Virus record (IMG/VR): IMGVR_UViG_3300050821_007696
Coordinates: 1-64,000 of that record
DNA length: 64,000 nucleotides
Direction: 5' to 3' (one strand)
DNA from: a virus
Shown here: positions 2,190 to 36,399 of the stretch, piece after piece
Layout: each line of letters begins with the position of its first letter
Position numbering within the stretch: the first letter of the stretch is position 1
Made by a program: the position numbers and the translations under genes
The notes under the pieces: model-generated
What the model was told of the DNA's origin: nothing
Databases searched by the model: none
What the model saw: the letters and a program-made list of their open reading frames with translations, nothing else

Positions 2190-2227
2190 GGCTCCCAGCT
2201 CTTGGGCCGCGGCTAAAGGCCAGCCTA
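2190..2227 (-). promoter_or_regulatory. -10 box plus late-gene leader motif (peptidase)
   Basis: minus strand TAGGCT...GCC-GC-GGCC-CA-AGAGC-TG-GGAGCC. Confidence 0.75.
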
Positions 2228-2389
2228 CGATGGTCGTGTGAAAGTGACCCTGCTGAACCCGCTTCCGCGGCGTGTTCGTTTCCGGCTGTGGCTCAGCAGG
2301 CAGCGCGACCGCCTGGGAATTGCCCTGTGCGACCACGGGCACGACCGTGCAGCCGAGCGTCTCTGGCAGCTGACCGAAGGCCGGTTCTG

Positions 2390-2563
2390 ATGCCGGAGGT
2401 ATGCGGCAAGGTTCCGTACCGGAGCAAGCTGGACGCGAAGCTGGCTCTCGCTCGCATAGGGCATAAGCAGCACGAGCGACGGCCTAAAAGCGAGCAGCGT
2501 GCGTACTGGTGCCTGCAGTGCCGGCGCTGGCACCTGACAAGCCGGAGGGAGTGGAGTACGTGA
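2390..2563 (+). CDS. small zinc-finger protein
   Basis: CGKVPY...RAYWCLQCRRWHLTS; coupled to the next gene. Confidence 0.7.
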   Translation: MPEVCGKVPYRSKLDAKLALARIGHKQHERRPKSEQRAYWCLQCRRWHLTSRREWST

Positions 2564-2988
2564 GCGCGGGCAGGTGGATCGAGGCACGGCGGGACGGCAA
2601 GTGCGCGCACTGCCCGGCGCTGTTCGCCGCGGGCGACGAGATCTGGGTGAAGAGCGCCGGGGTCTACTACTGCCAGGGCTGCGGGCTGCTCGACGAGAAC
2701 GTGACGGACCACGCTGTCGGGGCGTGGGAGGCGTCGGTGATGAAGGACCTCGCGAAGCTCCCGCTGGAGGCAGGCGAGAGCCTGCTCGCGCAGAACATGC
2801 TCGGCCTGGCCCAGGACCTGGACTCCGGTGACGTCCCGCCGCGCGAGCGCCCGCAGTACACCAAGGAAATCAGGATCAACCTGCTGACGCTGCAGGACGC
2901 CTACCCGCCGGACGAGGACGAGGACGAGACCGCGACGGCCCGGCAGAAGCGCGAGCGCCGCGCCCGCGAGTCCGGCAGCGGGTACTGA
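2560..2988 (+). CDS. probable terminase small subunit with N-terminal zinc finger
   Basis: CxxC...CxxC, then helical LAQDLDSG and basic C-terminal tail typical of actinophage TerS; upstream of TerL. Confidence 0.55.
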   Translation: MSAGRWIEARRDGKCAHCPALFAAGDEIWVKSAGVYYCQGCGLLDENVTDHAVGAWEASVMKDLAKLPLEAGESLLAQNMLGLAQDLDSGDVPPRERPQYTKEIRINLLTLQDAYPPDEDEDETATARQKRERRARESGSGY

Positions 2989-3011
2989 CACCTGCCCGGA
3001 ATAGTCACGGC

Positions 3012-3182
3012 ATGACAGGCGTTACACCCGCCATGGATACCAAGAGCATGGCGAACGGCAGCGGGTCGGCGCTGAACGGCGGCCCCGACACTCCCCAGGG
3101 CAGTCCGGTTCCCCCGCTGCTGCGTGACTGGGAGGTCCTTACCGCCCGCGCGACGACCACCAGTTTCTGGGAGCTGGTGTAA
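3012..3182 (+). CDS. hypothetical protein, 56 aa
   Basis: ORF below track cutoff that fills the gap between genes. Confidence 0.45.
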   Translation: MTGVTPAMDTKSMANGSGSALNGGPDTPQGSPVPPLLRDWEVLTARATTTSFWELV

Positions 3183-3212
3183 GCCATCGGCTGAGGAAGA
3201 AAGGAGGAGAGC

Positions 3213-3440
3213 ATGACGATTCAGAAGCTGCCCCGGCGGCGGCACTGCGACGTATGCGGCGACGACGGGTTCCTGCCCGCGGATTGCGTGTTCGACCGCG
3301 ACACGGTGTGCACCTGCGGCGCCGGGCCGGTCGACGCGTGGACCCTGCACGTTCCCGAGTGCGACACGGTCCCGTGCCCGTTCTGCCAGCTGCTGGGCGA
3401 AGCCGCGCTCGTGACCGGGCCGGAGAAGAGCAACGCGTGA
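3213..3440 (+). CDS. Cys-rich small protein
   Basis: strong SD AAGGAGG; 8 Cys. Confidence 0.7.
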   Translation: MTIQKLPRRRHCDVCGDDGFLPADCVFDRDTVCTCGAGPVDAWTLHVPECDTVPCPFCQLLGEAALVTGPEKSNA

Positions 3441-3447
3441 CGGAGCG

Positions 3448-3624
3448 GTGACTCACCAGCGGATTAGCCTCTTCGACGGTCCTGACGATCTGCGTGTCGC
3501 CGAGATCGGGCTGCGGGCCGCCATCTACGAGAACGTCGAGAACAGCCCCTGGGCGTACCGCATGTGGTGGATGACAAGCCGCTGGTGGTGGAACGAGGAC
3601 ACCGGGGCGTTTGAGGAGGACTAG
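3448..3624 (+). CDS. Trp-rich hypothetical protein, 58 aa
   Basis: MTHQRISLFDGPDDLRVAEIG...WWWNEDTGAFEED; typical GC3 codon usage. Confidence 0.6.
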   Translation: MTHQRISLFDGPDDLRVAEIGLRAAIYENVENSPWAYRMWWMTSRWWWNEDTGAFEED

Positions 3625-3711
3625 CGCGGGACATTGTCGGTACGGTCCCCATGGGAACTGCGCCCGCGCGGGACATTGTCGATACGGAAACCAGGCGAAC
3701 TACGCCCGCGC
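3624..3711 (+). repeat. imperfect 42-bp tandem repeat, two copies
   Basis: GCGCGGGACATTGTCGRTACGG at 3624 and 3666; GAACTRCGCCCGCGC also repeated at a 42-nt period. Confidence 0.8.
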
Positions 3712-3720
3712 AAAGGGCAT

Positions 3721-3801
3721 CCCCGGCGGAACCGGCCCGTTACCCGGAAAAGGCGTCATAGCCGATCTGGAGTAGAGCAGGTTCGACCCCTGCACCGGGG
3801 A
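3721..3801 (+). ncRNA. degenerate tRNA-like element
   Basis: CCCCGG/CCGGGG acceptor-like pairing and perfect T-arm GCAGG-TTCGACC-CCTGC; D and anticodon arms non-canonical. Confidence 0.4.
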
Positions 3802-3802
3802 T

Positions 3803-3872
3803 GCACGGCAAGAGCACCCGGCTACTCATCAGGCGAGCGCCAATGCTCCAGCGCCGGGTGCTCTTGCCGTGC
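3803..3872. repeat. 20-bp perfect inverted repeat upstream of terL
   Basis: GCACGGCAAGAGCACCCGGC / GCCGGGTGCTCTTGCCGTGC. Confidence 0.85.
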
Positions 3873-3888
3873 TCCGTAGTATCAGCAT

Positions 3889-5541
3889 GTGGAAAGTGCT
3901 ACTTCCAGTGCCGTCTTCGGCGCGCAGCGGCCCCGGTTCTTCACCTGCCCGCCGCGGCACACCGAGCGCGTCCAGCACTGCCGCGCGTGCGGTTCCGGCG
4001 GTGACGACTACCCGCCGGAGACCGGCTGCGGCGACCAGCAGGCTCTCGACGTGCTCGGCTGGGCGCAGGACGCCGCCGGGTACGAGCCTGACCCGTGGCA
4101 GTCGTGGTTCCTGACCAACGCGCTTGGCGTGCTGCCCGATGCCACCTGGGCGGCGACCGACGTCGGGCTGATCGTGTCCCGGCAGAACGGCAAGGGCACG
4201 ATCCTCGAAATCCGCGAACTCGGCGGGCTGTTTGTGCTGGGCGAGGAACTGCTGATCCACACCGCCCACGAGTTCAAGACCGCGGCCGAGCACTTCCGCC
4301 GGGTCAAGGCCGTCTTCGACGACCACCCCGCGCTGCGCAAGCGGGTCAAGCGGATCAGCGGGTCGCACGGCGAGGAAGCAATCGAGCTGTTCCCGCAGCC
4401 CACCCTGATCTTCGGTCCCGGGCGCCGGCAGGTCACCAGGCGGGTCGCCGGGCGGCTGCGGTTCCTCGCCCGGTCCAAGGGGTCCGGCCTCGGTTTCTCC
4501 TGTGACTGCCTGGTCTACGACGAGGCGATGATCCTGACCGAAGACCAGGTCGCCGCGTCGCTGCCGACCATGTCCGCCCGGCCTAACCCGCAGATCTGGT
4601 TCACCGGCTCCGCCGGGCGCGAGGACAGCTTCCAGTTCGCCTCCATCCGCAGCCGCATCGTGAAGAACACCTGTGACCTGTGCGGCGCCGAGTGGAGCAT
4701 CGACCCGCATAACGACGGCTGCACCCGCGACGAGCTGCTCGGCCGCGAGTCCAACATGTTCGTCACGTGCGACAGGCACGACGACCGGGACGACCCGCGC
4801 AGCTGGGCGAAGGCCAACCCCGGCTACGGGTACCGGATCAGCGAGAAGTTCACCCGCGACACCGAGCTGCGGAACATGACCGCGCACGTCTTCGACCGCG
4901 AGCGGCTCGGCGTCGGCGACTGGCCGCAGCCTGAGGCCCCCTGGTCGGTCATCAGCGAGATCGCCTGGGAGAAGCTGGCCGTCACCCAGGAGCACGCCGG
5001 GTTCCCCGTCCAGCCGATCGTGTTCGCGTTCGACATCGACGAGGACGGACGTTCCGCTACCATCAGCGCCGCCTGGGACCACCCTGAGGGCCGCATCGTG
5101 CTGGAGATCCCCAAGGGCTGCTCCCGCCAGGGCACCGGCTGGCTGCTGGAGAAGGCCGACCAGCTGTACAAGAAGCGCCAGCCGCTTGCCATGGTCGTGC
5201 CGAAGAGCGGCCCGGCTGCCGCGCTGATCCCCGACGGGAAGAAGCTGTGGCGCGAGCGGCTTGTCGAGATCGGGACCGCGGAGGAGGCAGCCGCCTTCGC
5301 GTGGCTCCTGCAGCAGGCCCGCGGCGAGACCCTGTGGCACTTCGGCCGGGACGGTGCGCCTACCCTGTGGCACGCCGTGGCGACCGCGGCGACCCGGGTT
5401 GTCGGGGACGGCGGCAAGGCATGGTCACGGCGGGACAGCGAAAGTGACATAACCCCGGTGACCAGCGCCACGCTTGCCGCGTTCATCCTCAACCGGGACC
5501 GCCGCAGCTACGACCTGCTTGCGTCTATCGGCGCGCGTTAG
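3889..5541 (+). CDS. terL: terminase large subunit
   Basis: Walker A-like SRQNGKG, Walker B LVYDEA, FTGSAG coupling motif, WAKANPG, nuclease Asp (FAFDID). Confidence 0.95.
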   Translation: MESATSSAVFGAQRPRFFTCPPRHTERVQHCRACGSGGDDYPPETGCGDQQALDVLGWAQDAAGYEPDPWQSWFLTNALGVLPDATWAATDVGLIVSRQNGKGTILEIRELGGLFVLGEELLIHTAHEFKTAAEHFRRVKAVFDDHPALRKRVKRISGSHGEEAIELFPQPTLIFGPGRRQVTRRVAGRLRFLARSKGSGLGFSCDCLVYDEAMILTEDQVAASLPTMSARPNPQIWFTGSAGREDSFQFASIRSRIVKNTCDLCGAEWSIDPHNDGCTRDELLGRESNMFVTCDRHDDRDDPRSWAKANPGYGYRISEKFTRDTELRNMTAHVFDRERLGVGDWPQPEAPWSVISEIAWEKLAVTQEHAGFPVQPIVFAFDIDEDGRSATISAAWDHPEGRIVLEIPKGCSRQGTGWLLEKADQLYKKRQPLAMVVPKSGPAAALIPDGKKLWRERLVEIGTAEEAAAFAWLLQQARGETLWHFGRDGAPTLWHAVATAATRVVGDGGKAWSRRDSESDITPVTSATLAAFILNRDRRSYDLLASIGAR

Positions 5542-5556
5542 TGCCAGCTGGCACTG
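5539..5556 (+). repeat. 18-bp element TAGTGCCAGCTGGCACTG, copy 1
   Basis: exact copy; its TAG is the terL stop codon. Confidence 0.95.
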
Positions 5557-5557
5557 A

Positions 5558-5637
5558 AAAGCAGCGCTCCGCCTCCGAGGGGTACTTACGGAACTAGAAC
5601 CTGGCCGTACTTTCCAGGACTGGCGGAGCGCTGCTTT
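5558..5637. terminator. 16-bp inverted repeat between convergent operons
   Basis: AAAGCAGCGCTCCGCC / GGCGGAGCGCTGCTTT. Confidence 0.65.
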
Positions 5638-5644
5638 CCGGAAG

Positions 5645-5776
5645 TTAACTGCACCCGTTGTGGCATCCCATGGAGTGCCGGGCGCAGTGGTCGATGTGCG
5701 ACATCCCACCGCGGCAGATACCGCATGAGCACGAGCACGTTCCCGCGTCGGGGCATTTTCCGCTTTGCTCATTCAT
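5645..5776 (-). CDS. Cys/His-rich microprotein, 43 aa (metallothionein-like composition)
   Basis: MNEQSGKCPDAGTCSCSCGICRGGMSHIDHCARHSMGCHNGCS; TGATG-coupled to the NlpC/P60 gene. Confidence 0.65.
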   Translation of the reverse strand: MNEQSGKCPDAGTCSCSCGICRGGMSHIDHCARHSMGCHNGCS

Positions 5777-6623: not shown

Positions 6624-6625
6624 GC

Positions 6626-7324: not shown

Positions 7325-7448
7325 GTATATCCTTACCTCGTATTGGCACCGTGCGCGGGGAAGGACTTGCCGGTGCTTAGCCCCGCTTCGCGGTCGTTTA
7401 ACAGCCGACGATAACAGCCAGGTCTCGCACATGGCGATAAAAATCGGC

Positions 7449-7554: not shown

Positions 7555-7638
7555 GGAGGGTTGGCCGAGAGGCAAGGCGACGGGCTGCTATCCCGTAGTC
7601 ACGGTAAACGTGCGCAGGTTCGACCCCTGCACCCTCCG
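7555..7638 (+). tRNA. tRNA-Ser(GCT)
   Basis: acceptor GGAGGGT/ACCCTCC, anticodon arm ACGGG-CTGCTAT-CCCGT, long variable arm, G discriminator; no encoded CCA. Confidence 0.92.
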
Positions 7639-7639
7639 C

Positions 7640-7723
7640 GGAAGGTACCGCACACGGGTGCAAACGGCTCTCGAAAAGCCGGGCGGGCAATGCGTCCCGA
7701 GGGTTCGATTCCTTTACCTTCCG
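7640..7723 (+). tRNA. tRNA-Ser(CGA), possible 8/4 allo-tRNA fold
   Basis: anticodon arm CGGCT-CTCGAAA-AGCCG, long variable arm, GGAAGGTA/TACCTTCC acceptor, tetraloop D-arm. Confidence 0.85.
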
Positions 7724-7738
7724 CTGTACGCTGGGCTT

Positions 7739-7999: not shown

Positions 8000-8123
8000 G
8001 ATTCAGCCGGGGCTGGCTGCGGTTCCCGTTTTTCAGCGGGTGCTCAGGTGTAGAGGGCCAGCAGTACCGGGGGCGGCAATCCGGTGCACCGCACTACAGC
8101 TGTTCTTGCTGCTTGCGTCCCGG

Positions 8124-8211
8124 TACGCTTGCCTGGTAGTGGCATGCCTACGGCCAGCTCTGTCGCAGAGTTAGGAGCTAGGAGACCCTTCGCGAAAGGG
8201 CGTCTCCGGCT
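8124..8211 (+). promoter_or_regulatory. -10 box plus late-gene leader motif (portal)
   Basis: TACGCT...GCC-TAC-GGCC-AGCTCTG-TCG-CAGAGTT-A-GGAGCT, then hairpin GGAGAC...GTCTCC just before GTG. Confidence 0.75.
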
Positions 8212-9984
8212 GTGGGACTGATCGAGAGCGTCCGTGCCTCTGCCGCAGAGCAGCGGGTCATCGGCGGCGTTCCGTGGCGTCCCTGGACTAACCCGTTCTG
8301 GCGGTTCGACGTCGGCGGCCCGGTCCACCCGTCGCGGCAGTTCTTCGGCGCCGAAGAGGCGATGGGCCTGCCCGCGCTGTACGCCGGCGTCAAGCTCCTG
8401 TCGGACAACGCGGCCTCGCTGCCGCTGCGCGTCTACCAGTCCCTGGACGGCGGGGGCGGGTACGGGGCCGGCAAGCACCGGCTGTACGGCGGTCCCACCA
8501 TCTTCGACAAGCCGTCGGTCATCGGCACGTTCTTCGACTGGATGTCGCAGGCGATGGTGTCGGTGCTGCTGCAGGGCAACTGCTGGGGCTTCATCACCGG
8601 CAAGGACGGCTACGGCTTCCCGACGGGCATCGAGTGGATTCCGCCCGAGGACGTCTACGTCATGGAAGCCAAGGACGTCAACAGTGCCAACCCGCTGCGG
8701 TCGCGCGTGTTCGTCTTCGGCCGTGAGGTCCAGTGGTACGGCCCCGACTCCGAGGTGTTCCACGTCCGTGGCATTACCCTGCCCGGCCGGGTCGAGGCGA
8801 TCAGCCCGATGCGCGCCTTCGCGCTGACGATCAGCGCCGGCAAGGAAGCCCAGCGGTACGGCACCAGCTGGTACGAGGGCGGCGGCTTCCCCCCGGGAAC
8901 TTTCCAGAACGCTGAGATGGAAGTTAACGCAGCCCAGGCGGCCGAGATCCGCGCCGAGCTGGTTAAGTCGCTGCGCCGCCGCGAGCCGCTGGTCTACGGC
9001 CGCGACTGGGACTACAAGCCGGTGACCGTACCGCCGAGCGAGGCCCAGTTCATCGAGGCGATGCAGCTGAACGCGACGCAGGTCGCCGCGATCCTCAACC
9101 TGCCCCCGAACAAGCTCGGCGGCCTCGCCGGGGACAACCTGCACTACAGCTCGCAGGAGCAGGACACCCTGGCGATCATCGAGGCGCTGCGCCCGTGGCT
9201 GGTCCGGTTCGAGCAGAGCTTCTTCGACCTGCTGCCCCGCAACCGGTTCACCCGCTTCTACACCGACGCGCTGCTCAAGACCGACCTCGAAGCCCGCATG
9301 AACATGTACCAGGTCATGCGGAACATCGGCATGCGTACCGCCGACGAGATCCGCGAGCTGGAAGACCTGCCCCCGCTAGGGTCCGGGATCGGGGCCGAGG
9401 AAATGCCGCTGACCACGATGAACGCGATGGGTACCAGGGCCGGCGCCATCCCCAAGAGCTTCCTCAAGTCCGTCGTGCTGGAAATCGACGTCGCCGCCGA
9501 CCGGCTGATCAAGCTGGAGAAGACACTGATCTCCCAGGGCAAGCTCCCGCAGGCGGTCGCACCGCAGCCGGGCCAGGGCGGTGCCGGGCAGTCCGGCGGA
9601 GGTGCAGGCGGCGGTGCAACGGGTCCTGGCGCCACTCCCGGCGGACTCGGCGGCGCCCCTGCCGCGCCTGCGGTCACCGGGCCGGTCCCTCCTGCGGGGA
9701 AGGTGCCGATCGGCAAGCCGAACGCGCCGCTCCCCCTGGCCCAGGACCCGGCGTCGTTCCTCGCCTCGCTGATCAGCGTCCAGCGGGACATGGGCGTCGA
9801 TTTCGAGCTGCGCGAGCTGGCCCGGCACATGTACGCGCGCATCGCCGAGCGGGCGCACCAGATTGAGGTTCACGAGGCGGCACTGGGCGAGGAGATTCCG
9901 TCGGAGCACCTGTACGCCCCGTGGGTGCCCGGTCGCGATGACCTCCGCGACGTCGTCCTTTCCGCGAACGGACACCGCAAGTGA
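8212..9984 (+). CDS. HK97-family portal protein with Gly/Pro-rich C-terminal extension
   Basis: ASLPL, LLQGN, EVFHVRG, EAQFIE, TADEIRELEDLPP portal motifs. Confidence 0.95.
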   Translation: MGLIESVRASAAEQRVIGGVPWRPWTNPFWRFDVGGPVHPSRQFFGAEEAMGLPALYAGVKLLSDNAASLPLRVYQSLDGGGGYGAGKHRLYGGPTIFDKPSVIGTFFDWMSQAMVSVLLQGNCWGFITGKDGYGFPTGIEWIPPEDVYVMEAKDVNSANPLRSRVFVFGREVQWYGPDSEVFHVRGITLPGRVEAISPMRAFALTISAGKEAQRYGTSWYEGGGFPPGTFQNAEMEVNAAQAAEIRAELVKSLRRREPLVYGRDWDYKPVTVPPSEAQFIEAMQLNATQVAAILNLPPNKLGGLAGDNLHYSSQEQDTLAIIEALRPWLVRFEQSFFDLLPRNRFTRFYTDALLKTDLEARMNMYQVMRNIGMRTADEIRELEDLPPLGSGIGAEEMPLTTMNAMGTRAGAIPKSFLKSVVLEIDVAADRLIKLEKTLISQGKLPQAVAPQPGQGGAGQSGGGAGGGATGPGATPGGLGGAPAAPAVTGPVPPAGKVPIGKPNAPLPLAQDPASFLASLISVQRDMGVDFELRELARHMYARIAERAHQIEVHEAALGEEIPSEHLYAPWVPGRDDLRDVVLSANGHRK

Positions 9985-10066
9985 CACGTTGCACGTCAGG
10001 TAGCAGGTACCTACCCTGTTTTATAAGCCAGGCACACCCTGCGCTGTCTGAGAAGGAGACCACCAG

Positions 10067-11464
10067 ATGGCTGTTCTGAGCAGCAGCGCGCGGGACAACC
10101 TTCCCGACAGCGCCTTTGCCTACATCGAGCCCGGCGGCAAGAAGGTCAACGGCAAGACCGTTCCCGGCAGCCTCCGGCACTATCCCGTCCACGACGCCGC
10201 CCACGTCCGGAACGCCCTTGCCCGCGCAGGCCAGGGCTCCCGCTTCGCGAAGGAAGCCATGCCAAAGATCCTCGCCGCGGCCAAGCGGCACGGCGTCGAG
10301 CACGACAGCGCCGGCACCGGGCGGTCCCTCGACTCGCTGCTCCCCGAAGTCCGGTTCCTCGCCGACATCCCGGAGATCCGCAGCATCGGCGACGGCCAGC
10401 CCCCGCACATCACCGGGTACGCCGCCGCGTTCGGCAAGCTGTCCCGGCGCCTGGGCGGTTTCGTCGAGCGGGTCATGCCGACCGCTTTCAACGAGTCCCG
10501 CGACGCCGGCTGGCCTGACGTGGTCTGCCGGTACAACCACGACCCCAACATGGTGCTGGGTACCACCGGTTCCGGCACCCTGTCGCTGGCGATCGACGAG
10601 CGCGGTCTGCACTACGACGTGCTCCCCCCGGAGTGCCGCTCCGATGTCGTTGAGTACGTGCAGCGCGGCGACGTCCGCTACAGCTCCTTCGCGTTCCGCT
10701 GCATGGTTCCCGGCGAGGACGACGAGTGGGGCGTCTCCGACTTCGGCTTCCCGATGCGGTCCCTGCACAAGGTGCAGACGGTCGACACCGCGCCTGTCCT
10801 CGACCCCGCCTACCGTGACACCAGCGCCGTCGCCCGCAATATGACCGGCGCCGTGGAGTCCCTGGCCATGTGGGTCGACGCCGAGCCGGCCGAGGTCCGC
10901 AGCATGCTGGAGGCCGGGCAGGCGATCCGGCTGTTCAAGCGCAGCGACCGGCCCGTGCCGAAGCCCGCCCCTGTTCCGGAGACCCGCGAGTCCGGCATGC
11001 TCGACGACCCGCAGGTTGCGCTCCGGCACTGGACTTACGTGGCGGAGGAAGAGGCCGCGGGTGAAGAGCGCGCGGAGCAGGAGGACGAGGAGCAGCGCGA
11101 GCACACCGCCGAGGAAATCCTTGAGCACGCCGAGGAAAGCCGGGCGATGCACAACGCCGACACCATGTGCCGCAAGTACGTGGACGGCGAGCCCTGCGTG
11201 ATGGGTTCCGGGCACGACGGCGACTGCACCGGCCGCTGCTACTCCCGGCCTAACGGCCTGCCCTGCGCGATGGCAGCCGGCCACCACGGCGCGCATACCC
11301 CGATGGAAGTCGACGACGGCGCCGGCCGCGGTCCCGGACGTCCCCGCAACCGCGACGCGGGCGAGACCGAGGCTGCCGCAGAGGCGGAGAAGCGGACCCT
11401 GACCGGCCCGGAAGCCCTGGCGGCTGTGTTCGCGATGCGCGAGCAGCTCACCGTGATTGACTAA
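10067..11464 (+). CDS. HK97-type prohead protease with N- and C-terminal extensions
   Basis: ITGYAAAF, YNHD, SSFAF, PAYRDT motifs; SD AAGGAG. Confidence 0.92.
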   Translation: MAVLSSSARDNLPDSAFAYIEPGGKKVNGKTVPGSLRHYPVHDAAHVRNALARAGQGSRFAKEAMPKILAAAKRHGVEHDSAGTGRSLDSLLPEVRFLADIPEIRSIGDGQPPHITGYAAAFGKLSRRLGGFVERVMPTAFNESRDAGWPDVVCRYNHDPNMVLGTTGSGTLSLAIDERGLHYDVLPPECRSDVVEYVQRGDVRYSSFAFRCMVPGEDDEWGVSDFGFPMRSLHKVQTVDTAPVLDPAYRDTSAVARNMTGAVESLAMWVDAEPAEVRSMLEAGQAIRLFKRSDRPVPKPAPVPETRESGMLDDPQVALRHWTYVAEEEAAGEERAEQEDEEQREHTAEEILEHAEESRAMHNADTMCRKYVDGEPCVMGSGHDGDCTGRCYSRPNGLPCAMAAGHHGAHTPMEVDDGAGRGPGRPRNRDAGETEAAAEAEKRTLTGPEALAAVFAMREQLTVID

Positions 11465-11792
11465 GCCCGTGCAGCGCGGGGAGATCGAGCGCATGCTCCA
11501 GGCGATGGAGCAGCGGCTGACTACGAAACTGGAGAACATCATGGCAGCTCAGGACGACATCAACACGGCGGTAGCGGATCTCACTGCGCTGCTGACCGAC
11601 ATGCAGGCGGACATCACCACTATCGGCACCGGCGTGACCGCGATCCAGGCGGCCCTCGCGGCGCTCCCGGCGTCGGTCGACACCACGGCGCTGAATGCCG
11701 CGGTCGCGCAGATCGCGCAGGCGCAGGTGAACCTGGATGCGTCAGCGGCCTCGGTCGCGAACGTGGTTCCCCCGGCGCCGCCCGCGGGTTAA
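11457..11792 (+). CDS. coiled-coil hypothetical protein (start may be ATG 11541)
   Basis: heptad-like Ala/Thr-rich helix; between protease and capsid genes. Confidence 0.7.
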   Translation: MTKPVQRGEIERMLQAMEQRLTTKLENIMAAQDDINTAVADLTALLTDMQADITTIGTGVTAIQAALAALPASVDTTALNAAVAQIAQAQVNLDASAASVANVVPPAPPAG

Positions 11793-11823
11793 GCTGAAGC
11801 CCTCGTCTGGTAGCGAGGTCTAA

Positions 11824-11857
11824 TAGGCGTCCTGCGGATTCGTCCCCAGGGCGCCTA
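11824..11857 (+). terminator. hairpin terminator
   Basis: TAGGCGTCCTG...CAGGGCGCCTA. Confidence 0.55.
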
Positions 11858-11879
11858 TGCGTTTACCGGGGTTTTCCCC

Positions 11880-11959
11880 TAGTCTTGAATTTGAGTTATA
11901 GCCACGGCCGCGCGTTCTGCGCTGGAGCTGGTCCCGTCCTGGAACAGGAAGGACCGGCA
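11880..11959 (+). promoter_or_regulatory. -10 box plus late-gene leader motif (major capsid)
   Basis: TAGTCT...GCC-AC-GGCC-GCGC-GTTCT-GCGC-T-GGAGCT; SD AGGAAGGA buried in GCTGGTCC/GGACCGGC hairpin. Confidence 0.8.
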
Positions 11960-13327
11960 GTGGCATCGGACCTTGCCAACAGCCTTCACGAGCAGGAGCT
12001 GGGGGTCTGGGCGAAGATCCAGTCCCTGGCGATGACTGCCTCGACTGAGAAGCGCAATTTCACCGAAGACGAGCAGCGCTCTTTCAACGCGATGCACGAG
12101 GAGCTGGACGGCGTCGACCAGCGCCTGAAGCAGATCCTCGAAGACGAGAAGCGCACCGCGGCGACCGACGAGATGTACGCCGGCCTTGAGCAGCGCGCTT
12201 CCAACCCGGGCATGAACCGGAAGCTGAACGACTTCGAGGTCGAGATGCGGGCCTTCGCCCGCGGCGAGAAGCGCACCCTCGACATCGTCAGCTCCGAGTC
12301 CCGGATCATGCAGCGGCTCGGCACCGGCCGTCCCATCAGCCCGGCTGAAGTCCGCGTGCTGACCGACGCCTACGTTGCGCCCGGCTCGTTCACCAACCAG
12401 ACCAACGCCGGCATTGTCCCGATTGACTTCTACGACCAGCTGCTCGCCTACCTCATTGAGGTCTCGGGCGTCATGCAGACCGGCCCGACCGTTCTGAACA
12501 CCGCCGGCGGCGAGCCGATCCAGGTTCCCATCGTGCAGCAGCACACCGGCCTGACCTCTGCGGGCGTCCAGGTAGGCGTCTCGGCCGCGCAGTCCGCGAC
12601 CCTGGCGACCGCCGACCCGGTCTTCGCGCAGAAGACCCTGACCGCCAACAAGTTCGGCATCCTGATCCAGGTAGCCCGTGAACTGATCGACGACAGCGGC
12701 GTCAACCTGCTCGGCTACCTCGCCATGTCGGCGGGCCGCGCGATCGGCAACGCGCTCGGCTCCTCGCTGATCAACGGCGGCAACGGCATCTCCGGCAACA
12801 TCATGTCAGCGCCCGTCGCGGTCACCGGCACCAGCTCCACGGCCGCGGGCGCCTCCGCCACCGGCCAGGTTCCCGGCGGCCCGTCGTACTCCAACCTGAT
12901 CGACATGGAGTACTCGGTTATCGCCCCCTACCGTCAGTCGCGCAGCTGCTACTGGCTCGGCGCGGACCGCACCCTCGCGGCCCTGCGGAAGCTGACCGAC
13001 TCCGTCGGCCGCCCCCTGTGGGAGCCCTCGACGGTCCTCGGCTCGCCCGACCTGCTGCTCGGCAAGCCGCTGGTCGCCGATCCGTTCATGAACGCCCTCA
13101 ATACCACGTCCAGCCCGTCGATCGTCTTCGGCGACTTCAGCCAGTACTTCGTCCGGATGGTCGGCGGAGTCCGGTTCGAGCGGTCGGACGACTTCGCCTT
13201 CGGGTCGGACCTGGTGTCCTTCAGGGCCATCATCCGGGCTGACGGCCAGCTGATGAACCCGCCCACCTCGGTTACCCCGCTGCTGAAGGGCCAGCCGCTG
13301 GTCCTGTTCCAGGGCGGCACCAGCTGA
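11960..13327 (+). CDS. HK97-fold major capsid protein
   Basis: N-terminal coiled-coil delta domain; ELIDDS, LLGKP, VFGDFSQY motifs; GTG start at 11960. Confidence 0.95.
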   Translation: MASDLANSLHEQELGVWAKIQSLAMTASTEKRNFTEDEQRSFNAMHEELDGVDQRLKQILEDEKRTAATDEMYAGLEQRASNPGMNRKLNDFEVEMRAFARGEKRTLDIVSSESRIMQRLGTGRPISPAEVRVLTDAYVAPGSFTNQTNAGIVPIDFYDQLLAYLIEVSGVMQTGPTVLNTAGGEPIQVPIVQQHTGLTSAGVQVGVSAAQSATLATADPVFAQKTLTANKFGILIQVARELIDDSGVNLLGYLAMSAGRAIGNALGSSLINGGNGISGNIMSAPVAVTGTSSTAAGASATGQVPGGPSYSNLIDMEYSVIAPYRQSRSCYWLGADRTLAALRKLTDSVGRPLWEPSTVLGSPDLLLGKPLVADPFMNALNTTSSPSIVFGDFSQYFVRMVGGVRFERSDDFAFGSDLVSFRAIIRADGQLMNPPTSVTPLLKGQPLVLFQGGTS

Positions 13328-13363
13328 GTTAAGCTGGCGGCACCCTGCGATAGGTGTGCTCTA

Positions 13364-13405
13364 CGGGAAGCCCGTCTTCGGTTTACGCTGAAGGCGGGTT
13401 TTCCG
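13364..13405 (+). terminator. terminator after capsid gene
   Basis: CGGGAAGCCCGTCTTC...GAAGGCGGGTTTTCCG. Confidence 0.65.
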
Positions 13406-13422
13406 CTGCTTAGGAGGCGTAC

Positions 13423-13923
13423 GTGAAAGCTGTCCGTCTGACCCGGGCCAACGGCCTGAACGAGCGCGTCCAGGGTGACGCCACCGCGATCCGGTACCTG
13501 GAGGACGCGGAAGCGGACCTCATGGTGAACGAGTTGAAGCTCGCCGTGTACGCGCCCGAGCACGACCCGCACCCGTCGTTCACGGCAAGCGGCGTGCAGG
13601 AGATCCCGGTCGTCAAGCGGGAGAACGCGCCGAGCGGCGAGCAGGTTGTCAGCATGATGGAACGCGGGCTCACCCCGGAAGAGGCTGCCCGGGAGCTGGT
13701 GCAGCTGACCGAGGAGTACGGCCTGTACGACGACGACCCGGTGATACTGCCCGGCCGTGCTGCTGACGGGGACGGGCTGACGCAGCCGTGGACGACGCAC
13801 TCGAAGGCGAAGTGGATTGAGTGGGCGCTGCACGGCAGCCACGGCCAGCCCCGTCCCGATCTCGCTGAGGTTGCCGGCCTTACCAAGAACGAGCTGATGT
13901 CCCGCTATGGCGAGCGGCTGTAG
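13423..13923 (+). CDS. hypothetical protein with C-terminal HeH/LEM-like segment
   Basis: SD AGGAGG; SKAKWIEWA...LTKNELMSRYG. Confidence 0.75.
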   Translation: MKAVRLTRANGLNERVQGDATAIRYLEDAEADLMVNELKLAVYAPEHDPHPSFTASGVQEIPVVKRENAPSGEQVVSMMERGLTPEEAARELVQLTEEYGLYDDDPVILPGRAADGDGLTQPWTTHSKAKWIEWALHGSHGQPRPDLAEVAGLTKNELMSRYGERL

Positions 13924-13928
13924 CACCC

Positions 13929-13984
13929 TACACTGGGGGTATAAGACACGAAGCATCTGCGGCCTGCTGGTAGCAGCAGGAGCC
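13929..13984 (+). promoter_or_regulatory. -10 box plus late-gene leader motif (gene at 14016)
   Basis: TACACT...TCT-GC-GGCC-TGCTG-GTAG-CAGCA-GGAGCC. Confidence 0.7.
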
Positions 13985-14015
13985 GGACAGCCTCGCCACC
14001 CGTGAAGGAGACACG

Positions 14016-14543
14016 ATGGCAGCTGTCAGCGACGGCACCAACCCGGGCCGCAGCCCGCGTCCTCAGCGCCAGATGCCGGCCCGGGGGCGCAACGGCGCCG
14101 GCGAGCCCGGTCTCGACCCGACTAACCAGCGGGGCCAGCTCCCCAGCGAGATCTTCGGCTTCGCCCAGCACTATTCCACCGGCGCCCCCGGCAGCGCAGG
14201 CTCCCGCACCAGCGCGTCGACGGACGTCACCGAGTACGACGGCCAGCTCGAAGAGGGCATCACCGGCCTGAGCGGTGCGCCCATTACCTCGACGGGCGCC
14301 CCCGGCAGCAGCGGCGCGTCTAACAGCGGCGGCGGCGAGACAGTCACCTACACCGACTTCTTCGGCTTCATGGGCCAGGAGCACCGCGAGTCTTCGACGA
14401 CCGGGACTATCAGCGGCAACGGCGACTGGACCCAGTTCAACAGCGACGGCTACGCAGGCGGCCCCACGCTGCCGATCCTCCAGAACGCCCGGCCCACCTC
14501 TACCGGTGCCGGCGAAGGCCGCGTCCGGGGGATGCACCCGTAA
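14016..14543 (+). CDS. Gly/Ser/Thr-rich putative virion protein
   Basis: SD AAGGAG; repeated STGAPGS; low complexity. Confidence 0.75.
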   Translation: MAAVSDGTNPGRSPRPQRQMPARGRNGAGEPGLDPTNQRGQLPSEIFGFAQHYSTGAPGSAGSRTSASTDVTEYDGQLEEGITGLSGAPITSTGAPGSSGASNSGGGETVTYTDFFGFMGQEHRESSTTGTISGNGDWTQFNSDGYAGGPTLPILQNARPTSTGAGEGRVRGMHP

Positions 14544-14698
14544 TGAAGGACTTCTCCGGGGTCAAGTGGACGGCATGGCCGCTGGCGGGCGCGGTCGGTG
14601 CCGGCCGGCAGGACGAGCTTGCCCCGCCCCCGGAGGGGTTCGGCCTCACGCCGTCCGCGTTCGTCCAGGAGGAGGCGCCTGATGCAGGACCTGAGTGA
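14543..14698 (+). CDS. hypothetical protein, 51 aa
   Basis: TAATG-coupled ORF below track cutoff. Confidence 0.5.
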   Translation: MKDFSGVKWTAWPLAGAVGAGRQDELAPPPEGFGLTPSAFVQEEAPDAGPE

Positions 14699-25268: not shown

Positions 25269-25331
25269 TAGTCTGTAGCTGACGCCTGAGGCCGCACGCG
25301 GAGCCGGGCACGCCTACGAAAGGTGTGCCTG
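25269..25331 (+). promoter_or_regulatory. -10 box plus late-gene leader motif (fibre operon)
   Basis: TAGTCT...GCC-TGA-GGCC-GCACGC-GGAGCC; hairpin GGGCACGCCT/AGGTGTGCCT covers SD and GTG. Confidence 0.8.
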
Positions 25332-32028: not shown

Positions 32029-32032
32029 CCCC

Positions 32033-32607: not shown

Positions 32608-32765
32608 TGAGCCTTAACGACCGGGAAGAGAAGCTACGGCAGGCGCGAGAGTGGCTAGACGCACCGGATGCGTCGCTGGAACAGGCACAGGCCGCCGCGG
32701 AGTACCTGCTCTACCGGATGCGGGAACAGCGGGAGGAGCTGCCGTGGCGGCGCGCTCTCTCGTAA
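32607..32765 (+). CDS. hypothetical protein
   Basis: TAATG-coupled. Confidence 0.6.
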   Translation: MSLNDREEKLRQAREWLDAPDASLEQAQAAAEYLLYRMREQREELPWRRALS

Positions 32766-32935
32766 CTGTCCCGTGGCGAACCGGGCGCAGCCTCGGCCGT
32801 ACCCTGTACGCGCGCACCGGCGGAGACGACTGGAAAGCGGACACGTTCATCGGGATCATGGAAACCCCGGAGCTGGCGCTCGCCGTCGCCGAGTGGCACA
32901 ACCAGAAGCTGGGTGACCTGTGGCGCGCATCCTGA
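32744..32935 (+). CDS. hypothetical protein
   Basis: WRTGRSLGRTLY...IGIMETPELA; SD GAGGAG. Confidence 0.6.
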   Translation: MAARSLVTVPWRTGRSLGRTLYARTGGDDWKADTFIGIMETPELALAVAEWHNQKLGDLWRAS

Positions 32936-34035
32936 TCGTTCACCCCGGGCCCGATTTTTCGGTTGCCGACGTGTACCGCGGCTGGCAGAAGGCGCTGTCG
33001 AAGCTCGGCCACACGGTGATGACGTACAACACCAACGACCGGCTCACCTTCTACGGGCACCTGCGGATGGCCGAGCACGGCAAGCCCGCGTGCGAGGCGT
33101 GCGGGGAGGTGCCGACGCGCAAGGCGCTGGACAACGACGGCATCCTCCAGCTGGGCATGGACGGCCTGTACGCCGACCTGAACAAGTTCTGGCCCGACGT
33201 GGTGCTGTTCGTCTCGGCGTTCTACATGTCCCCGGCGCTGCTCCAGTTCATCCGGACCCGGCGGCACAAGATCGTGATGCTGCACACCGAGAGCCCGTAC
33301 GAGGACACCGCGCAGATGGAGCGCGGCCAGTTCGCCGACCTGAACCTGCTCAACGACCCGGTGAACCTGGAGGCGTGGCGCGACCTGGAAGTGCCCGCCG
33401 CCTACATGCCGCACGCTTACGACCCGGACGTGCACTACCCCGACTGGCGTCCCGGCCGTTACGAGTCCGACTTCGCGTTCGTCGGGACGATCTTCAAGTC
33501 GCGGGCCGAGTTCTTCTCCAAGATGGACTTCACCGGCATCGACGCTGCGCTCGGCGGGGCCGGCTGGGACCTGGCGATGAAGCAGTACCCCGAGCTGGTC
33601 ACGGCGGTGGTGGACGCGCAGCGGCGGACCCGGCTGGTGGACTACGTCGGGCACCCGCTGGGCGCCTGCGTCGGCAACGACGAGACCGCCCGCGTCTACC
33701 GCGGCGCCAGGTGCGGGATCAACTTCTACCGCCGCGAGGCCGAGGACGCGCACACGGGCGAGGGCTGGGCGATGGGGCCGCGCGAGGTGGAGATGGCCGC
33801 GTGCGGGCTGTTCTTCCTGCGCGACCCGCGGCCGGAGAGCGACGAGGTGTTCGGGCACATCCTGCCGTCGTTCAGCTCGCCGGAGGAGGCTTCGCAGCTG
33901 CTGCACAACTGGCTCGGCTACGGGACGCGGCGGGAGTACGCAGCCGAGCGCGCCTACCAGGCGATCGCGGCGCGCACATTCGACAATAACGCCCGTGCGG
34001 CACTGAACCTGATGGAAGAGGCAGGGATTCTGTGA
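32920..34035 (+). CDS. GT-B glycosyltransferase (CgeB-like)
   Basis: PHAYDPDVH, DFAFVGT, GPREVEMAACG. Confidence 0.85.
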   Translation: MARILIVHPGPDFSVADVYRGWQKALSKLGHTVMTYNTNDRLTFYGHLRMAEHGKPACEACGEVPTRKALDNDGILQLGMDGLYADLNKFWPDVVLFVSAFYMSPALLQFIRTRRHKIVMLHTESPYEDTAQMERGQFADLNLLNDPVNLEAWRDLEVPAAYMPHAYDPDVHYPDWRPGRYESDFAFVGTIFKSRAEFFSKMDFTGIDAALGGAGWDLAMKQYPELVTAVVDAQRRTRLVDYVGHPLGACVGNDETARVYRGARCGINFYRREAEDAHTGEGWAMGPREVEMAACGLFFLRDPRPESDEVFGHILPSFSSPEEASQLLHNWLGYGTRREYAAERAYQAIAARTFDNNARAALNLMEEAGIL

Positions 34036-34193
34036 TCTGCAAAACGTGCCGTGCGGCTGCTTACGTCGCTGCGGGCAAGGATGCGAACGCGAACGTCACC
34101 GGGCCGCCCTTGCTGCGTCAGGCGGACCTGCTGCACATGCAGTGCCCGGGAGACACCTGGTGCGACTGCCAGCACTATCCGGTGCGTTCTTAG
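34032..34193 (+). CDS. Cys/His microprotein, 53 aa
   Basis: MICKTC...HMQCPGDTWCDCQH; GTGA-coupled; TAG stop lies in the 18-bp element. Confidence 0.65.
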   Translation: MICKTCRAAAYVAAGKDANANVTGPPLLRQADLLHMQCPGDTWCDCQHYPVRS

Positions 34194-34208
34194 TGCCAGC
34201 TGGCACTG
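34191..34208 (+). repeat. 18-bp element, copy 3
   Basis: exact copy. Confidence 0.95.
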
Positions 34209-34240
34209 GGCTGCCCTATCCAGGCAGGCAGCGGGCACCC

Positions 34241-34322
34241 TACACTTAGGTAGAGTAGCCGAGGCCACGTGTAAGCCACGTCGGAGCCGGACCCGTTCCT
34301 TTTTTTGGAAAAGGGGTCTGAC
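34241..34322 (+). promoter_or_regulatory. -10 box plus late-gene leader motif (major tail)
   Basis: TACACT...GCC-GA-GGCC-ACGTG-TAAGC-CACGT-C-GGAGCC; SD inside CGGACCC/GGGTCTG hairpin. Confidence 0.8.
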
Positions 34323-34775
34323 GTGGGGCGTATCCACGGCCGCAACGGCATGGTCTACATGGCGATCCTGTCTGGCGGTACCGCTCAGCCGCTCGCCTAT
34401 GTTTCCGACTGGACGATGAACTTCAACGTCGCCAAGGTCGATGTCACGGCGCTCGGCGACACCAACCTCGTCTGGGTTGCGGGCCTGCCTGACGCCTCCG
34501 GTGACTTCACCGGCTTCATGGACACGGCGACCAGCCAGACCTACCAGTCCGCGGTCGACGGCCAGCCGCGCAACTTCTACCTGTACCCGACGCTGATCGC
34601 CGTCAACGGCGGTCCAGGCAACGCGCAGGTCTCGGTCGGCCAGTACTTCTTCGGAGCCATCCTTCCTGACTTCAGCGCGGCGGGCGGCGTCGCAGCCGCG
34701 GTCACCATGAAGAGCACCTGGAATGCTGCGTCGCAGGTACAGCGGTACCCGGCCCTGGGTGTTCCTGGCACGTAA
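34323..34775 (+). CDS. major tail protein
   Basis: RIHGRNG...DVTALGD...GLPDASG; position before the chaperones; followed by a terminator. Confidence 0.85.
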   Translation: MGRIHGRNGMVYMAILSGGTAQPLAYVSDWTMNFNVAKVDVTALGDTNLVWVAGLPDASGDFTGFMDTATSQTYQSAVDGQPRNFYLYPTLIAVNGGPGNAQVSVGQYFFGAILPDFSAAGGVAAAVTMKSTWNAASQVQRYPALGVPGT

Positions 34776-34787
34776 CCCTGACACGGC

Positions 34788-34822
34788 GACGGCCGCTTTC
34801 CAGTGCGCGGAAAGCGGCCGTC
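34788..34822 (+). terminator. terminator after major tail gene
   Basis: GACGGCCGCTTTCC/GGAAAGCGGCCGTC. Confidence 0.7.
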
Positions 34823-34906
34823 TGCCAGGGCCGTACATGGAAATGGGGTTCCGAGACTTCATTGGGCACTGACATCCCCGACCTTATATCGAAACCGGAG
34901 ATTTCA

Positions 34907-35398
34907 ATGCCCCCAGCTGCAACGCGGCGTGCCCGTACTGCCCGTCCCGTCGAAGACGCGCGCCCGGTCGACGAACTCGGCGCTGCCTTCGGCATCGAGG
35001 AGCCGCCCCGGGTGAAGGCCCGGCGCCAGGCCCGCCGCATCCAGTCGGCGACGGCCGACCCGAAGGTACGGCTGCCCGAGAACGAGCGCGCCGTCGAGGT
35101 TGCCGACGGGGAACTGTCCGCGCCGCTCGCCGGGCACTACTTCCGGCTTCAGGAGTCCATCGGCCTGATGCCGCTGATGGAGTGGGCCGCGGCGACCGCC
35201 GAAGTAGACCCCGACAACCAGGTGCAGCTCGCCGGGCTGTTCAACCTGCTCAAGGACCTGGTTGACCCGGAGGACTGGGCGGAGTTCCGGAAGGTCTCCC
35301 GCGAGGCCAAGTGCAACGACGAGGACTTCGTCAAGTTCGTCAACGCCGCGATGGAGGCAATCGCGGCCCGCCCTACCGCGGCGCCCGCAACCTCCTGA
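34907..35398 (+). CDS. tail assembly chaperone (G-like)
   Basis: position; ends ...ARPT with CGCCCTAC candidate slippery site. Confidence 0.75.
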   Translation: MPPAATRRARTARPVEDARPVDELGAAFGIEEPPRVKARRQARRIQSATADPKVRLPENERAVEVADGELSAPLAGHYFRLQESIGLMPLMEWAAATAEVDPDNQVQLAGLFNLLKDLVDPEDWAEFRKVSREAKCNDEDFVKFVNAAMEAIAARPTAAPATS

Positions 35399-35859
35399 CC
35401 TGGGTACTCGCGCACTTCGCGAAGGTTAACGGCGACTTCCTGCGCACTCACGGGCACGGCATCGAGCAGCTGAGCCCGCGGGAGCTGTGCGACGTCGCCT
35501 ACTCCTCGATCGTCGCTGACATGGAACGCCACTACTATGCCCTGGTCGCGGCCGGGGCAAAGTGGGAGGACGTCAGCGACCCGCTCGGCGACGACATCCA
35601 GCGGTTCGAGGAGCGTATCGGGCTGCGCGACGACCCCGAGGCCATCGCCCTCGCGATGCACCGGCAGTTCCTGAAGGACCAGGGCAAGGAGTGGGACGAC
35701 ACGCCGGTCGGCGCGGGCACCGGGCAGTGGTGGGAGCAGGACACCGAGTTCACCAGCATGTCCGACCTGGACCAGGCGTCGAAGCGCAGGCAGGCTGTAG
35801 AAAAGAACCGCGGGCTGTTCGCGAAGAACAAGGCGCCAGCGGACAAGGAGGTGCTGTAA
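35371..35859 (+). CDS. tail assembly chaperone extension (T-like, -1 frame)
   Basis: overlapping -1 frame ORF with no credible start of its own. Confidence 0.7.
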   Translation, partial: PYRGARNLLTWVLAHFAKVNGDFLRTHGHGIEQLSPRELCDVAYSSIVADMERHYYALVAAGAKWEDVSDPLGDDIQRFEERIGLRDDPEAIALAMHRQFLKDQGKEWDDTPVGAGTGQWWEQDTEFTSMSDLDQASKRRQAVEKNRGLFAKNKAPADKEVL

Positions 35860-36245
35860 TGGCTGTCTCCGTCGAGGTCAACCTTGACCCGGTGGCGATC
35901 GACTGGCTGCTGAACAACCCCGACGGGCCGGTCGGCGCGGTCATCGAGGAGCTGTCGGTCAAGGCAGCGGCAATCGCCAAAGCCGCCGCGCCCGTTATCA
36001 CCCCCGGCCACTTCTCGCACTGGGGCCGCCAGTTCGACCCGAGGTACCAGTACGGCAGCCGCCCCGGGTCGACCAGGGCCAGTGTCCGCCCGTCCGGGTT
36101 CCGGTTCAACGCGCTCGGCCAGATGTACTCCGGCGTCAACGTCAACTACGGGTCGACCCTGTTCCTTGAGCAGGGCGGCGGACGGTACGGGCGCGCGGAA
36201 CTGCACCCGTTCATGTCTGTCGCGCTTGACACCGTGGAGCTGTAG
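35859..36245 (+). CDS. probable neck/tail-completion protein (HK97 gp10-like)
   Basis: LLNNPDGPV...FLEQG...HPFM. Confidence 0.65.
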   Translation: MAVSVEVNLDPVAIDWLLNNPDGPVGAVIEELSVKAAAIAKAAAPVITPGHFSHWGRQFDPRYQYGSRPGSTRASVRPSGFRFNALGQMYSGVNVNYGSTLFLEQGGGRYGRAELHPFMSVALDTVEL

Positions 36246-36325
36246 CAGCGCTGCCGGGCGTTCGCCAATTGGCATTCGTGCTTACATTGGCCCGGCGGCG
36301 CTGTCTCATGCAGCACCAGTCCCCG

Positions 36326-36399
36326 TAGTGTTTGTTCCGAACGCCGCGGCCTGACCTCAGGAGCCGGTCCGATCCAGCTTTTGAGGAGATGGCGGCGGC
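36326..36399 (+). promoter_or_regulatory. -10 box plus late-gene leader motif (tape measure)
   Basis: TAGTGT...GCC-GC-GGCC-TGACCTCA-GGAGCC; GCCG...CGGC closes a hairpin over the SD. Confidence 0.75.

Follow-up and report, generated by a model that had tools for sequence, protein, structure and literature searches.

A bulged hairpin in the leaders of late genes of a soil phage with a probable actinobacterial host

Introduction

How actinobacterial phages time the expression of their late genes is poorly understood, and a short element that recurs in front of such genes, in a phage lineage without a cultured relative, raises the question of what it does there. The DNA analyzed here, called the window, comprises the first 64 kb (64,000 nucleotides, nt) of an 84,235-base-pair (bp) IMG/VR virus record, IMGVR_UViG_3300050821_007696 (G000), which has a G+C content of 68%, four transfer RNA (tRNA) genes and an estimated completeness of 59% (CheckV). 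PHROGs assignments place the genes for the portal (start 8212), major head protein (11960), major tail protein (34323) and tape measure (36400) on its plus strand. An initial annotation had described a structured leader motif, GCC-N2-3-GGCC-[hairpin]-GGAGCY, in front of seven late genes and had proposed that it acts as a phage-wide translational switch. In this study, the motif proved to be a small bulged hairpin kept in front of late genes across related phages. With moderate confidence, we read it as a promoter-proximal leader RNA operator, that is, a class tag on late messages that would be recognized by one reader and would exert a positive effect after initiation.

Because the best match among 50,697 phage records, the capsid of phiC31/BT1-type Streptomyces phages, is only 27% identical, this phage has no close isolated relative. 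The IMG/VR database holds 221 capsid relatives, of which 80 loci with capsids 49-89% identical were retained. Remoter capsid relatives (30-46% identity) lie mainly in genomes of Streptomyces, Amycolatopsis, Pseudonocardia, Kribbella and Actinomadura, and the host is therefore most likely an actinobacterium, judging from sequence. Three relatives recur below: G001, with a capsid 82% identical to that of G000; G003; and G005, a complete 210-kb phage with terminal repeats whose capsid is 52% identical and which was kept out of model training.

Occurrence and specificity of the motif

All seven copies described previously are present where they had been placed, and the minus strand carries an eighth at 64809-64834, slightly past the end of the window. 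Aligned on the conserved blocks, the copies follow the form CY-NN(N)-GGYC-[loop or hairpin of 5-30 nt]-G-GA-GCY-RG. Each of the eight copies is intergenic and has the same sense as the downstream gene, and 25-35 nt separate the end of GGAGCY from the start codon.

The strict pattern GCCN2-3GGCCN4-25GGAGCYGG matched six times in the 84-kb genome, always at true sites, while the reversed control gave no forward and one reverse match. The shorter pattern GGCCN4-25GGAGCYGG matched 12 times in the window versus 2.6 +/- 1.9 times in shuffles, and none of 100 shuffles reached 12. A loose pattern, GGYCN4-34GGAGCYRG, performed no better than the reversed control in five related genomes and was uninformative; therefore, a descriptor and a covariance model were used instead. 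This model (R1; 34 sequences, 8 pairs) scored seven G000 copies at 25.8-29.7 bits and the portal copy at about 15 bits, and the best background matches in G000, at 21 and 19.6 bits, both fell within coding sequence. Two further sites that had been listed as weaker variants, 34824 and 41907, gave no model match at E<10, lack the GGAGC or GGCC partner and were dropped. Across five actinobacterial genomes (~50 Mb), 11 model matches reached at least 26 bits, a lower bound with 150 first-look candidates scored per genome. Eight of the ten that were inspected lie within open reading frames (ORFs) with high G+C at third codon positions and the other two are coding-like; these matches are background. 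A chance origin of the leader hairpin is ruled out by the eight intergenic sense copies, the excess over shuffles and the sparse matches in the actinobacterial genomes.

The view that the motif belongs to no known RNA family also held. An Rfam search of the window returned only three tRNA matches, and Rfam 15 gave nothing at the motif in ten related loci (E<=5), with no match at the gathering or E-value threshold.

Fold of the hairpin and the folding strand

From the base up, the fold consists of a first stem (P1, CY/RG), a 5' bulge of 2-3 nt and a second stem (P2, GGY/GCY). Above P2 follow an invariant 3' GA bulge, a C-G pair and an apical part that varies from a 5-nt loop to a 30-nt hairpin. 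Pairing statistics were taken from an alignment of 60 distinct sites aligned to the model (A5). Standard pairs fill 95% of the paired cells, versus 18-54% after the 3' partner column is slid by 1-3 positions. The second pair of P1 is C-G in 41 sites, U-A in 13 and U-G in 6, and is never unpaired. P2 and the C-G pair are likewise never unpaired, their variation being limited to G-U, so that the pairing of GGC with GCY around a GA bulge, as first proposed, is borne out with 0 unpaired cells in 60 distinct sequences. The first apical pair is GC in 36 sites, GU in 9, UA in 5, AU in 4 and CG in 4. G-U pairs make up about 7% of all paired cells; the opposite strand would have A-C mismatches at these places, and it is therefore the sense strand that folds. 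Together with the covarying pairs, this supports the earlier claim of function at the RNA level, most likely as RNA proper.

The same data bear on a DNA-level explanation, in which the blocks would be half-sites of a promoter-associated DNA-binding protein or the hairpin would be a promoter for a phage polymerase. The element always stands beside a promoter-like box, and its blocks form an imperfect inverted repeat, as such a site might. Against this, the blocks stand anywhere from 5 to 30 bp apart, the sequence between them covaries as a hairpin and the G-U pairs allow only one strand to fold. Moreover, the upstream -10 and -35 boxes appear to be of the host type, and clades with other upstream boxes still have the hairpin. 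We regard a DNA element as highly improbable.

The inserts above the conserved base span 5-30 nt (median 14) and fold better than shuffles (mean z -1.3, p = 1e-7), the shortest being loops only. The inner hairpin of the initial annotation, said to pair in every copy, thus stands for the longer inserts, which do fold, while some copies have a 5- to 8-nt loop with 0-2 extra pairs, for example GCACGC at 25284. At orthologous sites of G001 (portal, capsid, tail, tape measure and others), the conserved base is kept while the inserts are unrelated; the portal-site insert is AGCTCTGTCGCAGAGTTA in G000 versus GCACGC in G001. Because orthologous sites keep the base but carry unrelated inserts, the conserved object is the bulged stem base and not the hairpin above it.

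Individual copies and the genes they lead

On the minus strand, copy 1 (2188..2212; 27.5 bits) has the sequence CCGCGGCC-CAAGAGCTG-GGAGCCGG and stands 30 nt before the start codon (ATG 2159) of the gene for a 309-residue protein of unknown function (phrog_19005); a -10-like box, TAGGCT, occupies 2222-2227 on the same strand. The remaining copies of the window are on the plus strand. Copy 2 (8148..8181), the weakest at 15.1 bits, reads CTACGGCC-[AGCTCTG/CAGAGTT stem]-GGAGCTAG with CU/AG as P1; it precedes the portal gene (GTG 8212) and follows the box TACGCT (8124-8129). Copy 3 (11902..11931; 29.7 bits), whose orthologous site is kept among related loci, leads the major head protein gene (GTG 11960; box TAGTCT, 11880-11885). 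Copy 4 (13957..13986; 28.9 bits), CTGCGGCC-[TGCTG/CAGCA]-GGAGCCGG, leads a 175-residue ORF (ATG 14016; box TACACT, 13929-13934). Copy 5 (25286..25307; 27.3 bits) is a minimal form with the insert GCACGC in front of a 105-residue, Cys-containing ORF (GTG 25331; box TAGTCT, 25269-25274). Finally, copy 6 (34259..34290; 25.8 bits) leads the major tail protein gene (GTG 34323; box TACACT, 34241-34246), and copy 7 (36344..36367; 29.5 bits) leads the tape measure gene (GTG 36400; box TAGTGT, 36326-36331).

The major tail gene is also followed, 13 nt past its stop, by a strong 14-bp GC hairpin (GACGGCCGCTTTCC/GGAAAGCGGCCGTC) at 34788-34822. This hairpin has no U tract and is probably a 3' stabilizer or a partial terminator before the tail chaperone genes.

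Conservation in related phages

The motif occurs upstream of the capsid gene in nearly all 80 related loci. The suggestion of a late-gene regulon is upheld by the same motif on the late genes of relatives and by the conservation of orthologous sites. In G005, seven of the eight sense-strand matches of at least 20 bits lie inside the late-gene module, and the motif-led genes encode the terminase, the capsid, a sugar epimerase, a lysin with GH25 and peptidoglycan-binding domains and several small ORFs. G001 carries about 10 copies and G003 two or three.

In remoter relatives, the hairpin is elaborated to GGCC-GUAGC-[stem]-(N)GGAC-GGAGCC, whose internal loop is invariant. Searching IMG/VR for exact occurrences of this form gave 75 matches versus 12 for the reversed control; 57 of the 75 stand before a capsid homologue and five before a major tail homologue. 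Collectively, these results identify the motif as a label of late messages and its richest form as a label of the virion proteins that are most abundant.

Several neighboring features were observed in these relatives. The motif-led large terminase gene of G005 (107012-109819; locus L107:8015-10819, minus strand; 935 residues) contains a LAGLIDADG/homing-endonuclease domain at residues 311-379, which suggests an intein. Most of the loci L113-L140, which come from actinobacterial genomes and have capsids 39-46% identical, are without the GGCC..GGAGCC motif. Another conserved leader element is found there, ~60-90 nt before the start of the capsid gene (position ~2910-2940 in most), in which a covarying stem of 4-5 bp (GAGG/CCTC, GGGA/TCCC, TCAGG/CCTGA) closes a conserved 14-nt loop, CAGGGCG(A/C)(A/C)ACCCA. 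This element sometimes occurs in two copies and has no Rfam match. A GCTGGTTnTGGGCCG leader described for another actinophage genome differs in sequence from the present hairpin.

Link to promoters

The initial annotation had placed each copy shortly after a TANNNT box. This is the case for seven of the eight G000 copies, in which the box lies 9-22 nt upstream of CY; the eighth has TAACTG as part of an upstream TTGCAC-18-TAACTG. Over four genomes, 25 of 27 sites have TANNNT at this distance (mode 11-14 nt), compared with 4-5% of random positions. The box of the G003 clade is part of a full TTGCAC-17-TAnnCT promoter, which occurs once in G003 without a hairpin; therefore, promoter and hairpin are separable. 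Remote clades show other upstream boxes (CTAG...ACAGAAT) with the same hairpin. The spacing of the motif is tighter to the -10 box (standard deviation 3.8 nt) than to the start codon (8.7 nt), from which it is 27-64 nt distant in relatives, mostly 27-43 nt.

Scans of positions 1-40000 with E. coli-type promoter and terminator consensus sequences found nothing above shuffles, the promoters here being -10-only. No phage sigma factor was found in five genomes with the Pfam model of sigma70 region 2, and region 4, which is helix-turn-helix-like, gave only sub-threshold matches in two genomes. We infer the transcription start because the sequencing runs that contain window positions 8000-14600 are soil DNA only and none is on record as RNA.

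Three near-identical 35-bp promoters, TTGYRCGACTTCACRGCYGCCCTTAnnCT, were noted in G003 at 48526, 25800 and 50115 (minus strand), in which the -35 and -10 boxes and also the spacer are conserved. The leader hairpin follows two of them (capsid and major tail) but not the third, which lies upstream of the gene preceding the capsid gene.

A position next to promoters invites comparison with processive antitermination of the lambda N/nut or HK022 put type, in which the nascent hairpin, with or without a phage factor, would modify the polymerase for terminator read-through in long late operons. In lambda, boxB is read by N through a conserved loop and is accompanied by boxA, and put RNA contains a triplex and has bulges that matter. 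Each genome has two such sites, nut or put, located at early promoters, and these RNAs act on their own transcript or on the polymerase that produced it. The present element resembles them as a short structured RNA directly downstream of phage promoters. Every copy is promoter-proximal, and long units are present (14016 to ~25237, 25331 to ~34193 and 36400 to ~53900). Nut and put sites are likewise small leader hairpins directly after phage promoters, and HK022 put RNA comprises ~70 nt with two long stem-loops (PMC9378689). In contrast, the minimal copies here measure 22-25 nt, the 22-nt forms being far below the length of put RNA, and much of the family lacks a second hairpin. Up to ~10 copies occur, and they stand at late genes. 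The units are re-promoted every 0.5-17 kb with a copy each; the capsid and tail units contain one or two genes, and the strong hairpin at 34788-34822 after the tail gene would be defeated. The apical loop, which N-type proteins read, is free to vary (5-30 nt), and no conserved boxA-like block follows the motif. Searches found no boxA, N, Q or NusG paralogue. For the NusG paralogue (PF02357), five genomes gave no match while the control search was positive in 10 known genomes, which also separates the element from LoaP/RfaH-type leader elements, as no specialized paralogue accompanies it. Antitermination fits poorly and is an unlikely explanation.

The same position would suit a factor-independent 5' stabilizer, a stem-loop that shields late mRNAs from 5'-end-dependent RNase E or RNase J, as the ompA or T7 phi10 leaders do. 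In the T7 cassette, a promoter, a 5' stem-loop leader, gene 10 and the terminator T-phi follow one another, and the stem-loop is a by-product of the promoter start that serves as a generic stabilizer. Here too a separate promoter and a 5'-proximal stem-loop precede the major capsid gene, a 3' hairpin follows the major tail gene, and the longest versions of the element stand on the most abundant proteins. However, stabilization of this kind would not fix GG-C, G-GA-GC and the bulge positions across capsids that are 50% identical while the stem shrinks to 4-5 bp, and the specific bulges are conserved independently of promoter type, unlike in T7. Furthermore, the unpaired 5' tail predicted from the TANNNT spacing, ~2-15 nt, is long for end protection. 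Such a role for the hairpin is, in our judgment, quite improbable.

A second hairpin over the ribosome-binding region

The initial annotation had further proposed that the motif controls a second hairpin that buries the Shine-Dalgarno (SD) sequence or abuts the start codon. A hairpin running from GCY/RG over the SD or start codon is indeed present in five of the eight copies, with predicted free energies (dG) of -14.7 to -21.3 kcal/mol. In the portal leader (8177..8210, plus strand; -17.0 kcal/mol, z -2.3), it extends from the GCT of the motif to 1 nt before the start. In the capsid leader (11927..11958, plus strand; -21.3 kcal/mol, z -4.4), the SD AGGAAGGA is paired and the GCUGG of P2/P1 of the motif is drawn into the second hairpin, which is specific to the nearest clade. 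The second hairpins of copies 5 (25305-25331, plus strand) and 6 (34288-34320, plus strand) reach -19.6 and -15.9 kcal/mol, respectively. Within the nearest capsid clade, z ranges from -2.4 to -6.5. Over 47 capsid leaders, the mean z is -1.06, and the unpaired probability of the SD region is below 0.3 in only 23%.

As a general switch, the SD-burying hairpin does not hold up: it is strong in five of eight copies and in the nearest clade and is absent from most of the family. Therefore, SD unmasking of the Mu Com kind cannot be what conserves the motif, and it is a lineage-specific layer.

In phage Mu, a hairpin lies 5' of a structure that hides the ribosome-binding site of the late gene mom, and binding of the Com protein activates translation. 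A Com-like switch would accordingly consist of a phage protein that binds hairpin 1 and weakens the SD- or start-burying hairpin, turning on translation of the morphogenesis genes. Five of the eight G000 copies share this layout of a hairpin beside an occluding structure, and their second hairpins compete with P1/P2 for 2-5 nt. The nearest capsid clade retains the second hairpin with compensatory changes, and the distance from motif to start, mostly 27-43 nt, would suit such control. Mu, however, controls one gene in this way, as compared with a regulon of 2-10 units per genome here, and the conserved part of the present element is a bulged stem base rather than a defined binding loop. The copies at 2188, 13957 and 36344 have no significant second hairpin, and most of the family shows no more structure between motif and start than shuffles do, with the SD accessible. 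Even the capsid SD would stay paired after losing the 2-5 shared pairs. A Com-type zinc ribbon (PF10122) gave no match in five genomes, in a search that also gave none in its control genomes. We therefore consider it unlikely that a Com-like switch explains the motif.

Proposed role of the hairpin

Under the preferred reading, each late transcription unit would start at an actinobacterial-type, -10-only promoter (TANNNT), and the small bulged hairpin would fold ~5-15 nt into the transcript. There it would most likely serve as a sequence- and shape-specific docking site for one trans-acting reader, because only the stem base and bulges are kept across phages whose capsids are ~50% identical. 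The reader could be a phage protein or a conserved host machine. Its effect would be positive and exerted after initiation, as message protection, translation help or both; we infer this sign because the motif heads the genes needed in the largest amount and because the elaborate form stands mostly on major capsid genes, with five on major tail genes. The SD-occluding second hairpin would be a lineage-specific addition that could tighten the dependence of some genes on the reader.

A broader claim, to which we give slightly less than even credence, is that these features represent a previously undescribed late-gene control system of large high-GC actinobacterial phages. In this system, a single reader would recognize the GA-bulged stem base on each late transcript and so determine, after initiation, when and in what amount virion, glycan and lysis proteins are made, and the GUAGC/GGAC loop would be a second module that prioritizes capsid and tail messages.

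Several points weigh against the proposed operator. Alignment A5 was fitted to the model and its sequences are related, so that the shuffle controls overstate significance; the P1 and P2 counts are robust to this because invariant bases on either side fix the positions of these stems. As hairpins, the minimal forms have very low thermodynamic stability, with dG of about -1 to -6 kcal/mol, and in minimum free energy folds of long context, they often lose to alternative pairings; these long-context folds were left out as evidence in either direction. The assignment of promoters draws on sequence alone, and the positive sign draws solely on the identity of the motif-led genes. The two small proteins considered below as readers are both undetectable in G005. 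Finally, the annotated core proteins common to G001, G003 and G005 reveal no reader and belong to replication, recombination, lysis, the virion or unknown functions.

Candidate readers

The small zinc-ribbon ORF at 56941-57192, put forward initially as a candidate regulator, has no homologue (blastp E<1e-4) in the motif-carrying relatives G001, G003 and G005, which also counts against its part in a Com-like switch. Two conserved small Zn/Arg-rich proteins are better, though unproven, candidates: a 102-residue Arg-rich zinc-ribbon ORF at 67449-67757, outside the window, and the motif-led 105-residue ORF at 25331. ESM Atlas look-ups for both gave sub-threshold leads only. The annotated core shared by G001, G003 and G005 includes an SNF2 helicase, a D5 primase-helicase, DNA polymerase A, SLT, an exonuclease and unknowns, as well as one protein that we take from its sequence to be RuvC-like. 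The Nop Pfam model had no match in G000.

An antisense or guide RNA as the reader was rejected, since the only intergenic complements of GGAGCCGG in 84 kb are the motif's own opposite strand. Periodic arrays were noted in G000 at 78380-78540, 82200-82800 and 83700-84235, in which an edge repeat (TRGCCGSCKGGCG), 9 nt, a loop repeat (TGGNTNCCG) and 9 nt alternate; they flank a 339-residue ORF on the minus strand. Where the arrays (78.4, 82.2 and 83.7 kb) share 9-mers with the leaders, the matches are GC-rich and due to chance.

Relation to described elements

The closest described repeats of actinophages are the start-associated sequences (SAS) and extended start-associated sequences (ESAS), which precede genes in Cluster K mycobacteriophages and Cluster EF Microbacterium phages (PMC3203893, PMC7302621). 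SAS has a 13-bp consensus, GGGATAGGAGCCC, which contains GGAGCC, and lies at the ribosome-binding site, 3-7 nt before the start codons of genes in the non-structural half of the genome (PMC3203893); for ESAS, the authors found no support for RNA pairing and favored a DNA-binding protein. Like the present motif, these are repeated, asymmetric motifs in one orientation before many actinobacteriophage genes, and a trans-acting reader is suspected. In contrast, the present motif lies 25-64 nt upstream, stands on virion and lysis genes and covaries as RNA. The nearest functional analogues are Com/mom, N/nut, put and the T7 phi10 leader, each of which has a defining feature that the present motif lacks.

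Resemblances to structured RNA motifs were also considered. A kink-turn has a 3-nt bulge followed by tandem G-A/A-G pairs, with GA on both strands; the present hairpin has GA on the 3' strand only, and its 5' strand after GGC continues with C and the variable insert, so the kink-turn was rejected. Resemblances to the bulge-helix-bulge motif, group II domain 5, ops and the signal recognition particle loop were rejected on strand layout.

A sequence-defined element of 22-50 nt that is common to hundreds of soil phages offers a handle for finding the factor that switches on virion production. If the proposed operator is real, its reader would be either a new phage RNA-binding protein or a host machine exploited by the phage. 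The leader element could also serve as an annotation marker for late transcription units in metagenomic phage genomes and as a portable expression part for Streptomyces-type hosts. Moreover, it extends the unexplained start-associated repeats of actinophages by a case that covaries and is clearly at the RNA level.

Other features of the genome

The 84 kb contain eight copies of a perfect 14-bp palindrome, GTGCCAGCTGGCAC (16-18 bp when the flanks are included), one of them with a single mismatch. The sites lie at 5541, 25237, 34193, 41646 and 54962 in the window and at 64589, 76877 and 80289 beyond it, mostly on or after stop codons, and two are located 35-50 nt upstream of leader-hairpin copies. 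The palindrome resembles an operator (cf. the phiC31 CIR sites) or a bidirectional terminator. The tRNA genes form two groups: tRNA-Ser genes (GCT, CGA) stand in tandem at 7555-7724, upstream of the portal unit, and a tRNA-Arg(ACG)/tRNA-Phe(GAA) pair lies at 41494-41640, between the tape measure gene and a tail gene of 1896 codons.

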